A stretch of 32,559 nt of DNA from the IMG/VR virus record IMGVR_UViG_2675903654_000020, positions 1 through 32,559 of that record; one strand, written 5' to 3'. The notes under the pieces were generated by a model. It had not been told where the DNA came from. It did no database searches and saw only the letters and a program-made list of their open reading frames with translations. This DNA comes from a virus (lineage: Duplodnaviria; Heunggongvirae; Uroviricota; Caudoviricetes). Both the position numbers and the translations under genes were made by a program. This document shows, one piece after another, positions 23,990 through 24,919 of the stretch (position 1 is the stretch's first letter; each line of letters opens with the position of its first letter).

Positions 23990-24331
23990 TTGAAAGCCTT
24001 AGCCATTTTAATTGTTGCCTTTATGTCATTTGGGGCATCAGCAAGCGGGTACACTGCTTATTGTGGGCCTTACACCATCACTGCAAGGTTGGGTGAAATG
24101 GACATGATTAACGGTGAACGCGTCACATCGCAGAAAATTACAAATCTTGGTGCTGATGGCATTAAGATTGATATGGGGCTTATGCCTGCTAAAGATGGCA
24201 ACAATTATGGCTTTGAATACATTCGCCGTCCTGGTACCGAAACGCGATTCCTGAACGTCCAACTGCTGCAGAACAGCATGGACGCGCCGAAAATTATCGG
24301 CTCCTTCCCGTGTAAAAAAGTGCCTGGTTGA
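23990..24331 (+). CDS. small secreted protein (signal peptide), AT-rich accessory gene
   Basis: TTG start with GGGGT RBS; N-terminal hydrophobic signal sequence ending ASA-SG; AT-rich relative to neighbours; terminator hairpin at its stop. Confidence 0.45.
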   Translation: MKALAILIVAFMSFGASASGYTAYCGPYTITARLGEMDMINGERVTSQKITNLGADGIKIDMGLMPAKDGNNYGFEYIRRPGTETRFLNVQLLQNSMDAPKIIGSFPCKKVPG

Positions 24332-24348
24332 AGGCAGGCACTTTCTTT
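24313..24348. terminator. bidirectional intrinsic terminator between convergent accessory genes
   Basis: Stem GTGCCTG / CAGGCAC flanked by A-run upstream and T-run downstream. Confidence 0.55.
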
Positions 24349-24350
24349 AA

Positions 24351-24716
24351 TCATTCCTTTTTGATTTCGATTTCTTCTTTAGCCTCACTGAATAGTTTAA
24401 AAAGTTCTTCATCGGTGAGGTTGCTTGCTTCGATTTTGTAGCCGCCTTTTTTGATGATTATCTTCTTACTGTGTTTTGCTCTAATCCATGCGGCCACAAC
24501 AGCAGCGACGCTATAACAAACATCTTTGTTTTGGATAAATTCAAAAATGTATCCGAGTATCACTGATGCGGGTGAGGATGCAGAAGGCGCTGAATCACCT
24601 ACCCGCGCCCTTACACCCATTTTTCTGGCTTCAGCGGGGATGATCTCCTCGATATAAGGGATCAACTCTTCCCCTACGGATTTTGAGAGGCGTACTTTGA
24701 AAACTGATTTAGTCAT
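24351..24716 (-). CDS. hypothetical protein (121 aa) on opposite strand within the tail module
   Basis: ATG 24716-24714 with AAGG RBS; convergent with 23990-24331; AT-rich. Confidence 0.5.
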   Translation of the reverse strand: MTKSVFKVRLSKSVGEELIPYIEEIIPAEARKMGVRARVGDSAPSASSPASVILGYIFEFIQNKDVCYSVAAVVAAWIRAKHSKKIIIKKGGYKIEASNLTDEELFKLFSEAKEEIEIKKE

Positions 24717-24897
24717 AACCTTTGGCGGCTCCTTCCGGAAAAGAATTAATGCTATATGGTCACTGGCTGGAACTTTGTTGGCTTTGGTCTTTTATGGCGA
24801 GGCAAAAATCGTTCTTAAAAACTATTGCCATCAAGATGAGCCGAAAAAGGTGTAACACCAACACCTGATAATTTATATCCTGATATTTGATCAGTAA

Positions 24898-24919
24898 CCC
24901 GCCACCCGGCGGGTTTTTT
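24898..24919 (+). terminator. intrinsic terminator just upstream of the baseplate spike gene
   Basis: Stem CCCGCC / GGCGGG with ACCC loop followed by 6 T. Confidence 0.55.

Follow-up and report, generated by a model that had tools for sequence, protein, structure and literature searches.

EACC1 has been described as the small, unchanging member of a two-gene system whose other gene, a 3' neighbour, encodes a caspase-like peptidase; the protein is built around a conserved helix that carries a patch of small residues, and the family, as defined by that pairing, comes largely from actinobacterial or 'multicellular' bacteria (PMC7159879). Only recently was it shown to be a protease-licensed pore-former (10.1101/2025.11.14.688446). 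EACC1 is an autoinhibited monomer that the adjacent caspase-like protease cleaves at an Asp of the linker; the C-terminal fragment proved toxic and able to permeabilise liposomes (Evans et al. 2025, 10.1101/2025.11.14.688446). Here we describe a putative relative of this effector in a viral sequence of 32,559 nucleotides (IMG/VR record IMGVR_UViG_2675903654_000020, positions 1 to 32,559; hereafter the window), a myovirus-tailed Escherichia coli prophage with lambdoid regulation. The region of interest lies between the baseplate hub and spike genes and contains three small genes, referred to as ORF-A, ORF-B and ORF-C. We are highly confident of its anatomy, in which ORF-A belongs to the phage backbone, ORF-B and ORF-C together form a cassette, and ORF-B is homologous to EACC1.

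ORF-B (24351..24716, minus strand, 121 aa) had been recognised as a gene in an original prediction made from the DNA letters alone, where its product was cast as a possible regulator or immunity partner of the secreted protein encoded by ORF-A. The reading frame is confirmed; the proposed function finds no support, and the protein instead resembles a pore-forming effector. Direct searches with ORF-B (Pfam, NCBIfam, PADLOC and PDB sequences) returned nothing usable, and its AlphaFold2 model gave generic fold matches only. The protein is rare, with 15 clusters among 5.8 billion proteins, and a family profile compared against 1.84 billion representatives retrieved 27 proteins of 45-157 aa, mostly 107-127 aa. 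EACC1 (PF19953) was the commonest Pfam match within the aligned family, in which it was matched by 23 of 29 members. A single, distant member, P0204, which the family profile found with an E value of 2.7e-8 in the same 1.84 billion proteins, scores 36.9 bits against EACC1, over the Pfam gathering score of 23.6 bits; a close relative, P0005, scores 14.5 bits. Comparison by hhalign of the close ORF-B family (A1) with the distant EACC1-positive group (A4) gave a probability of 99.3% and an E value of 1.1e-20.

The predicted structure agrees with this assignment. ORF-B shows the EACC1 architecture of alpha+beta ends around a conserved small-patch helix, with the order E-H-E, linker, E-H-E-E-H-E in the AlphaFold2 model (pLDDT 69.8); that is, an N-terminal beta-alpha-beta unit is followed by a disordered Ser/Ala/Pro linker, whose residues 40-49 have pLDDT values below 50, and by a C-terminal beta-alpha-beta-beta-alpha-beta unit. 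D41 in the linker is invariant among 13 close homologues. The hydrophobic helix, CYSVAAVVAAWIRAK (which includes SVAAVVAAW), is rich in small residues and nearly invariant, and within residues 64-80, DVCYSVAAVVAAWIRAK, the alanines A71, A72 and A76 do not vary at all. Judged by these profile and model comparisons, ORF-B is a remote homologue of EACC1.

The genomic contexts of three distant homologues indicate that this clade is prophage-borne and oriented like morons expressed in the lysogen. The gene for P0204 (loci L155-L157) is located directly 3' of cI (HTH + S24) and on the cI strand, which is the rexAB position of a lambdoid immunity region. The gene for P0195 (L162) is placed opposite to and upstream of a holin-endolysin pair, and that for P0197 (L158) lies on the opposite strand within another E217-type tail cluster. 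The contigs carrying P0199, P0212 and P0217 were too short to be informative. In L155, a metagenome contig like L156 and L157, the Pfam-positive EACC1 homologue (5770-6147) is followed by a gene for a 134-aa protein with an N-terminal hydrophobic segment.

The apparent spacer on the spike side of ORF-B (24717-24895) is not free of genes. As alignment of cassettes from diverged hosts showed, it carries most of a further gene, ORF-C, which the original prediction had not recognised, as well as an inverted repeat specific to the cassette. ORF-C (24697..24855, plus strand) begins with TTG, is preceded at a distance of six nucleotides by the Shine-Dalgarno sequence GAGAGG (24685-24690), and encodes 52 residues, MKTDLVITFGGSFRKRINAIWSLAGTLLALVFYGEAKIVLKNYCHQDEPKKV, in which a basic RKR is followed by the hydrophobic helix AIWSLAGTLLALVFY; its product is predicted to be a single-helix membrane protein. 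The first 20 nucleotides of ORF-C are the reverse complement of the first 20 nucleotides of ORF-B, so that the 5' region of each gene lies inside the other. The reading frame is intact in all complete copies, which form 10 distinct full-length sequences of 52-55 aa with TTG or GTG starts; one further copy is cut by a contig end. Between the window and a Klebsiella copy, for example, differences at first, second and third codon positions number 13/7/32, with 20 synonymous changes in 45 codons. Such a concentration of substitutions at third codon positions clearly points to a coding gene. Conservation of the region merely as a non-coding 5' leader of ORF-B was considered and rejected, given the third-position pattern and the intact frames.

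Several observations tie ORF-C to ORF-B. A DNA pattern made from the overlap retrieved 17 further loci, in all of which both genes occur together between an ORF-A-like gene and the spike gene, and the two are jointly present in every complete copy retrieved, over a range of hub identity from 50 to 100%. It is to ORF-C that ORF-B is strictly linked. The P0195 and P0197 loci, too, have an ORF that diverges from the EACC1-like gene and overlaps its 5' end, and these two ORFs ranked at the top of 25,335 ORFs searched with an ORF-C hidden Markov model (E 9e-4 and 4e-3; next 0.29). This lends moderate support to a pair conserved across three genomic contexts, since the overlap itself adds to the ORF-C profile score. 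In the rex-slot locus L155, an overlapping ORF of 61 aa falls below recognition by the ORF-C profile. The ORF-C-like genes are co-directional with the late genes in the baseplate, L158 and L162 contexts, and in L162 the gene stands immediately upstream of the holin gene. ORF-C is missing from the annotations that we inspected: RefSeq shows nothing at this position in E. coli strain STEFF_1, which is 99.9% identical to the window over the query region; the gene calls in the collected loci omit it; and the record of Hafnia phage yong1 (L002) uses another frame. The last of these is a 39-aa ORF annotated at 4476-4595 of that record (window 24749-24868), which we treated as spurious. ORF-C is accordingly a new, unannotated gene that overlaps ORF-B head-to-head.

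To place the two genes in their wider setting, we collected 125 hub-to-spike junctions, drawing on IMG/VR contigs, on a single genome for each GTDB species and on annotated records, with the hub protein as bait in order to avoid a bias towards ORF-A. ORF-B is present in 8 of these 125 junctions. The junction query itself matched 310 of 5,426 complete E. coli genomes, so the prophage lineage that carries the junction is very common, and ORF-B occurs in 3 of the 310. By sequence-similarity searches the cassette as a whole is found in 3 of the 5,426 E. coli genomes and in one cultured phage (yong1); the aligned copies come from E. coli, Hafnia, Klebsiella, Izhakiella, an Erwiniaceae isolate and metagenomes.

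The limits of the cassette can be read from its relatives. Homology to yong1 begins at 24274, and in loci with other cargo (YafO-type) homology resumes at 24896. In L044 and in yong1 a different first gene is followed by only a 3' remnant of ORF-A, and in the Klebsiella locus L010 an ORF-A 3' remnant of the E. coli type lies behind the stop codon of that locus's own ORF-A. Near-identical cassettes (ORF-B 97-99%) adjoin ORF-A alleles that are 65-68% identical and hubs that are 78-95% identical. More generally, the gene upstream of ORF-B may be an ORF-A allele (28-99% identical), a member of cargo cluster c9 or c19, or, in L009, a gene for a 128-aa protein. Because ORF-A 3' remnants and near-identical cassettes occur in diverged contexts, we conclude that the mobile unit is a stretch of approximately 620 bp (~24274..24895) comprising the last ~19 codons of ORF-A, a bidirectional terminator, ORF-B, ORF-C and the inverted repeat. 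In the Erwiniaceae prophage of L009 (5781-6781), the cassette and its convergent 128-aa gene are located between the spike and sheath-initiator genes, which indicates that the cassette can also occupy the neighbouring junction of the same module; tblastn detected no similarity between the 128-aa protein and ORF-A. In L149, L150 and L154, a lineage whose ORF-B is ~75% identical, approximately 800 additional nucleotides separate ORF-C from the spike gene.

Base composition and predicted transcription signals are in keeping with an inserted unit, much as had been anticipated for the converging genes. The GC content is 0.462 in ORF-A, 0.423 in ORF-B and 0.428 in the spacer, compared with 0.549 in the hub gene, 0.521 in the spike gene and 0.493 in the whole window; at third codon positions it is 0.47 for ORF-A and 0.42 for ORF-B, against 0.62 for the hub gene. 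Codon adaptation to the late genes is lowest for ORF-B among nine genes measured (0.719) and not distinctive for ORF-A (0.773). The expected bidirectional terminator is present as a hairpin at 24314..24347 that overlaps the ORF-A stop codon and is predicted to end the ORF-B transcript. It folds with -16.0 kcal/mol on the plus strand and -17.6 kcal/mol on the minus strand (z -3.2 and -5.6; 0 of 200 shuffles as good), has a U6 tail on the minus strand just past the ORF-B stop codon, and was also hit on that strand in a simple scan. A strong intrinsic terminator on the plus strand just upstream of the spike gene (24896..24921, or 24896-24915 by narrower bounds), likewise anticipated, has an 8-bp stem with six GC pairs and a T-run (dG -14.7, z -3.7); it begins 41 nucleotides downstream of the ORF-C stop codon and is common to junctions that carry other cargo. 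A third element, the hairpin at 24848-24866, was less fortunate: its fold is weak (dG -7; 5 of 200 shuffles as good), and we rejected it as a regulatory element because it is not conserved among homologous cassettes and spans the ORF-C stop codon.

Directly upstream of the second terminator lies the cassette-specific inverted repeat CCTGATATTTGATCAG (24879..24894), which contains GATC. Written with Y at position 6, the repeat is found exactly in 23 of 154 loci, each of which, apart from L113, is a cassette locus. It occurs once in the window, and as RNA its hairpin is weak (dG -3.5). We regard it as a candidate operator, promoter element or RNA hairpin. The repeat, CCTGAYATTTGATCAG, is perfectly kept in cassettes whose proteins are only ~50% identical. 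In L113 (Serratia fonticola, 5820-5835) it adjoins a different minus-strand cargo gene, for a 99-aa protein with a C-terminal hydrophobic tail; its presence beside other cargo suggests a shared regulatory or recombination element.

ORF-A (23990..24331, plus strand, 113 aa, TTG start) behaves differently. The predicted secreted protein was confirmed as an ORF with a signal peptide (residues 1-19, ASA/SG), in which K and a hydrophobic stretch precede ASA|SG, and a signal-peptide-like leader is found in every homologue; C25 and C108 are invariant or nearly so. The claim that ORF-A is an inserted gene did not survive the survey. An ORF-A homologue is located 3' of the hub gene in 106 of the 125 junctions (~85%), always on the plus strand and with its start -8 to +4 nucleotides from the hub stop codon, and is translationally coupled to the hub gene. 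This synteny persists where hub identity is only 45-55%. ORF-A is the sole gene between hub and spike in 8 junctions, and in 3 others the hub gene abuts the spike gene without it, which indicates that ORF-A is dispensable for the virion. ORF-A is thus part of the backbone and lies outside the insert. Presence/absence combined with deviant composition, the usual marks of a moron, is seen for the cassette, which also has its own terminators (24314-24347 and 24896-24921), and is not seen for ORF-A. The idea of a single AT-rich moron therefore holds for its ORF-B half, which is rare, bracketed by terminators and encoded on the opposite strand, and fails for ORF-A.

The ORF-A family comprises at least 393 clusters. 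Direct searches (Pfam, NCBIfam, PADLOC and PDB sequences) gave nothing usable. The protein matches PHROG 3443 over its full length (E 2.8e-46), a group that PHROGs labels 'unknown function', and is 59% identical to a protein named 'STY1065/STY2022 family phage-derived protein' at NCBI, although it falls below the NCBIfam model of that family; neither name carries a function. Its model (pLDDT 82.7) is an 8-stranded up-and-down beta-barrel, for which a fold search of PDB returned a generic calycin/avidin barrel and a search of BFVD returned no significant viral match (best E 2.8e-3). Among phages with hubs at least 95% identical, mean identity is 72.6% for ORF-A, compared with 97.5% for the hub and 97% for Dit, so ORF-A evolves much faster than its neighbours. 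Inspection of the genes that substitute for ORF-A (c9, c11 and c35) revealed that these too have signal-peptide or lipoprotein-type N-termini. Fast divergence, together with leaders in both ORF-A and its replacements, suggests an exported accessory protein under diversifying pressure.

Together, these observations are compatible with a model in which the cassette is a lysogen-expressed membrane-toxin module that acts by abortive infection, with ORF-C as its partner. We infer the expression, toxicity and trigger as well as the role of ORF-C, and consider the chances for and against this model to be about equal. In the lysogen, the late operon would be silent and ORF-B would be transcribed from the opposite strand, ending at 24314-24347, to yield a latent pore-former. 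Cleavage or unlocking at the D41 linker would then release the pore-forming part, permeabilise the membrane and kill the cell, thereby aborting the infection. The responsible protease would not be encoded by the cassette and might come from the incoming phage or from the host; since no peptidase adjoins the gene in any context examined, the unlocking activity would act in trans.

Upon prophage induction, late transcription antiterminated by Q would cross both terminators and the cassette. Lambdoid late antitermination allows read-through of internal terminators, and because the window carries a Q-type antiterminator and a lambdoid lysis cassette, such late read-through would be expected here. 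Collision and antisense pairing with these transcripts would shut ORF-B down, and ORF-C mRNA would be made, whose product may act as membrane partner or antidote. A more specific idea, which we advance only tentatively and with considerable doubt, is that enterobacterial prophages carry a minimal, protease-less EACC1 system, a latent pore-forming suicide effector triggered directly by a protease or other activity of the infecting phage and equipped with a self-immunity switch. Given the head-to-head overlap, late transcription would switch the toxin gene off and the antidote gene on, and the prophage could complete its own lytic cycle without tripping the abortive-infection module. ORF-A, for its part, would be translated through coupling to the hub gene and exported to the periplasm, where it would fold as a small disulfide-bonded beta-barrel. 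Rather than being a virion part, it would most plausibly counter, from within the envelope, the apparatus by which related phages inject; we assign it this role in superinfection exclusion with low confidence.

A number of results weigh against this account. The window's ORF-B has no Pfam match at E <= 0.1, and its link to EACC1 is transitive, most relatives scoring below 23.6 bits. No peptidase or caspase gene stands beside ORF-B or its homologues in L009-L012, L155-L158 or L162, where the neighbours are baseplate, cI, holin or tail genes, and a Pfam scan of window ORFs revealed no caspase; the defining partner of EACC1, which would perform the activation step, is thus missing from every context examined. 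A scan of 23500-25500 for sigma-70-like promoters found no site at 9 of 12 matches, and a looser scan of 15 cassette variants yielded no conserved leftward promoter, only weak rightward candidates inside ORF-B. PADLOC matched none of ORF-A, ORF-B and ORF-C. ORF-C may serve as antidote, co-effector or independent toxin. For ORF-A, the barrel fold is generic, and its alleles vary together with the tape measure C-terminus and with the spike only as far as linkage explains.

Other readings of the same genes deserve consideration. ORF-C might be a type I-like membrane toxin for which the ORF-B mRNA, and perhaps the ORF-B protein, is the antidote, the whole serving as an addiction or stabilisation module. 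In its 52 residues, single hydrophobic helix and weak TTG/GTG start, ORF-C is like many membrane toxins that are kept under tight repression, the ORF-B mRNA is antisense to the ORF-C ribosome-binding site and, through the 20-nt 5'-5' overlap, to its start (any 5' untranslated region of ORF-B would cover more), and the two genes are strictly co-inherited. Yet it is ORF-B that has a proven pore-forming toxin as its homologue. The antitoxins of classical type I systems are non-coding RNAs, whereas this antisense transcript is protein-coding, and transcription by the phage late operon would be odd for a suicide toxin unless it served lysis. The Rfam search of the region gave only sub-threshold chance matches and no family. 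We judge such a module unlikely. The cassette might instead work for the phage's own lytic cycle, with ORF-C (perhaps together with ORF-B) as a holin-like or lysis-timing factor, or might exclude other phages by late depolarisation. Its orientation along the late genes in three contexts, its position next to and upstream of the holin gene in L162, and the fact that EACC1-type proteins and small membrane peptides both target the membrane are compatible with this. However, more than 90% of closely related phages have a complete set of holin, endolysin and spanin genes and no cassette, ORF-B runs antisense to late transcription, and one ORF-B homologue occupies the rex position, which is expressed in lysogens; a lytic role thus seems very unlikely.

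Two further alternatives concern ORF-A. In the form originally proposed, ORF-A and ORF-B would be a single moron that encodes a secreted exclusion or conversion protein and its regulator or immunity partner. In both genes the AT content exceeds that of the flanks, the two converge on one terminator, and the cassette takes with it the final ~19 codons of an ORF-A allele. The presence/absence survey already contradicts this arrangement: ORF-A is found without ORF-B in ~100 junctions, 8 of which hold ORF-A alone, ORF-B is found with four different upstream genes or alleles, and its strict linkage is to ORF-C. We therefore regard the single moron as highly improbable. ORF-A might, on the other hand, be a periplasmic inhibitor that shields the cell wall from tail-associated muralytic activity, in the manner of PliC/MliC or T4 Sp; in relatives, the tape measure bears the annotation of a lytic transglycosylase. 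ORF-A could be placed in PliC/MliC neither by sequence family nor by a specific match to the 8-stranded inhibitor-barrel fold, and membership in a lysozyme-inhibitor family was rejected, the PDB match being generic and BFVD giving nothing significant. Such an inhibitor appears quite improbable. We continue to favour the membrane-toxin model for the cassette, with ORF-A as a separate backbone gene.

The survey also revealed that the slot 3' of ORF-A is a hypervariable cargo hotspot, previously undescribed. Greedy ORF calling and clustering of the junction content yielded 53 clusters in total, of which ~50 cargo clusters in ~40 architectures remained once ORF-A and a handful of clearly spurious ORFs had been taken out; on the minus strand, c4, c10, c13-like and c25 were treated as spurious or set aside. 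Most of these clusters are uncharacterised. Recognisable cargo includes a Pfam-positive YafO toxin with an upstream 192-aa partner (11 loci), the candidate defence protein PDC-S42 (L118, E 1.8e-16), and a weakly HEPN-like protein of 131 aa whose partner is either of two ~250-aa proteins, of which one is weakly TPR-like (~37 loci). A DUF2335 membrane protein, DUF4282, a weakly PycTM-like membrane protein and several lipoproteins are also represented. We found nothing on the hub-spike junction in the literature on STY1065, SEN34 and Brunovirus. With its mostly uncharacterised cargo and its very common host lineage, the junction appears to be a useful place to seek defence and exclusion genes.

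The surrounding genes are those of a myovirus-tailed prophage, whose relatives include Salmonella phage SEN34 (Brunovirus), Hafnia phage yong1 and Klebsiella phage Mulock. The Q-type antiterminator gene (DUF1133/antitermQ, 5179-5853) lies in the early part of the window and is followed by holin, endolysin and spanin genes, which make up the lambdoid lysis cassette, and then by terminase, portal and capsid genes. The tail module begins with the tape measure gene (20052-22037), after which come genes for a Dit-like protein, a Pam3-gp18-like plug and the hub, the junction insert region, and the gene for the gpV-type spike. The hub gene (22926..23987, plus strand, 353 aa; Pfam E217_GP41, E 3.5e-5, under the curated cut-off) is the left backbone flank of the junction and is syntenic across all related loci. 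The right flank is the gene for the central spike of the baseplate (24939..25691, plus strand, 250 aa), which has a Pfam spike N-terminal domain (E 2.6e-44) and an Apex motif and is named 'membrane-puncturing spike protein' in RefSeq. Downstream of it are a gene of the sheath-initiator family (gp25-like) and baseplate J.

Elsewhere in the window, a eukaryote-type Ser/Thr protein kinase gene (2494-3288, minus strand; Pkinase, E 9e-32) adjoins a PP2C-type phosphatase gene (1794-2510, minus strand); lying on the opposite strand in the early region, the two look like a further accessory or moron-like module. Possible accessory genes are also one for an ORF6N-domain protein (6124-6735), placed between the holin and Q-like antiterminator genes, and, close to the right end of the window, one for a calcineurin-like metallophosphoesterase (31624-32283). 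Two convergent Caudo_TAP tail-fibre assembly genes (29071-29508, plus strand, and 29480-30073, minus strand) are followed by a fibre-tip-like ORF (30073-30582, minus strand) and a resolvase-type gene (30573-30962) with a Resolvase N-terminal domain (E 5e-37) in only 129 aa. This stretch, 29071-30962, looks like an invertible host-range segment of the Gin/Pin type; its inverted repeat is only weak, at 18 nucleotides (29418-29435 / 29544-29561).

How the cassette relates to described systems depends on which of its features is compared. The rexA/rexB genes of lambda are likewise a two-gene prophage module with a membrane component and an apparent orientation for expression in the lysogen, and one EACC1-like homologue occupies the rexAB position; the present cassette differs in lying inside a baseplate cluster, and no sequence or fold relationship to RexA or RexB was seen, none having been searched for. 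HK97 gp15 is an exclusion moron within tail genes. With the morons of HK97 and the lambdoid phages the cassette shares the character of an extra transcription unit in the late operon, with deviant composition, flanking terminators and presence/absence; it differs from them in consisting of two overlapping genes of opposite orientation and in that we identified no promoter. Small membrane toxins also feature in type I and type V toxin-antitoxin systems, such as hok/sok, tisB/istR and ghoT/ghoS. As there, a predicted antisense transcript would overlie the translation start of a gene for a small hydrophobic peptide; the partner is a protein of ~100-120 aa that, like GhoS, has an alpha/beta sandwich fold. 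Unlike in these systems, the antisense partner is a protein-coding mRNA for a homologue of a pore-former, and there is no homology to those families.

The closest likeness is to EACC1 itself. ORF-B and EACC1 share a length of ~110-125 aa, a small N-terminal alpha+beta domain, an Asp-containing flexible linker, and a strongly conserved hydrophobic helix that bears a small-residue patch and precedes beta-beta-alpha-beta, in addition to their homology at the profile level. In contrast to the published proteins, which come from defence loci of actinobacterial or 'multicellular' bacteria, ORF-B is located in moron slots of enterobacterial prophages, has no adjacent caspase/peptidase (or cNMP cyclase) gene, is paired with an overlapping gene for a 52-aa membrane protein, and in the window falls below Pfam thresholds. 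If this interpretation is correct, a distinct EACC1 clade, protease-less and always paired with an unannotated, overlapping membrane-protein gene, resides on prophages of E. coli, Klebsiella, Salmonella and Hafnia. This would extend the EACC1 family to a new architecture and raise the question of what unlocks the toxin, while the overlap of the two genes would suggest how a prophage avoids killing itself with its own abortive-infection module. The cassette is best described as a new, protease-less variant of the EACC1 effector that is carried by prophages and joined to a novel partner gene overlapping its own.

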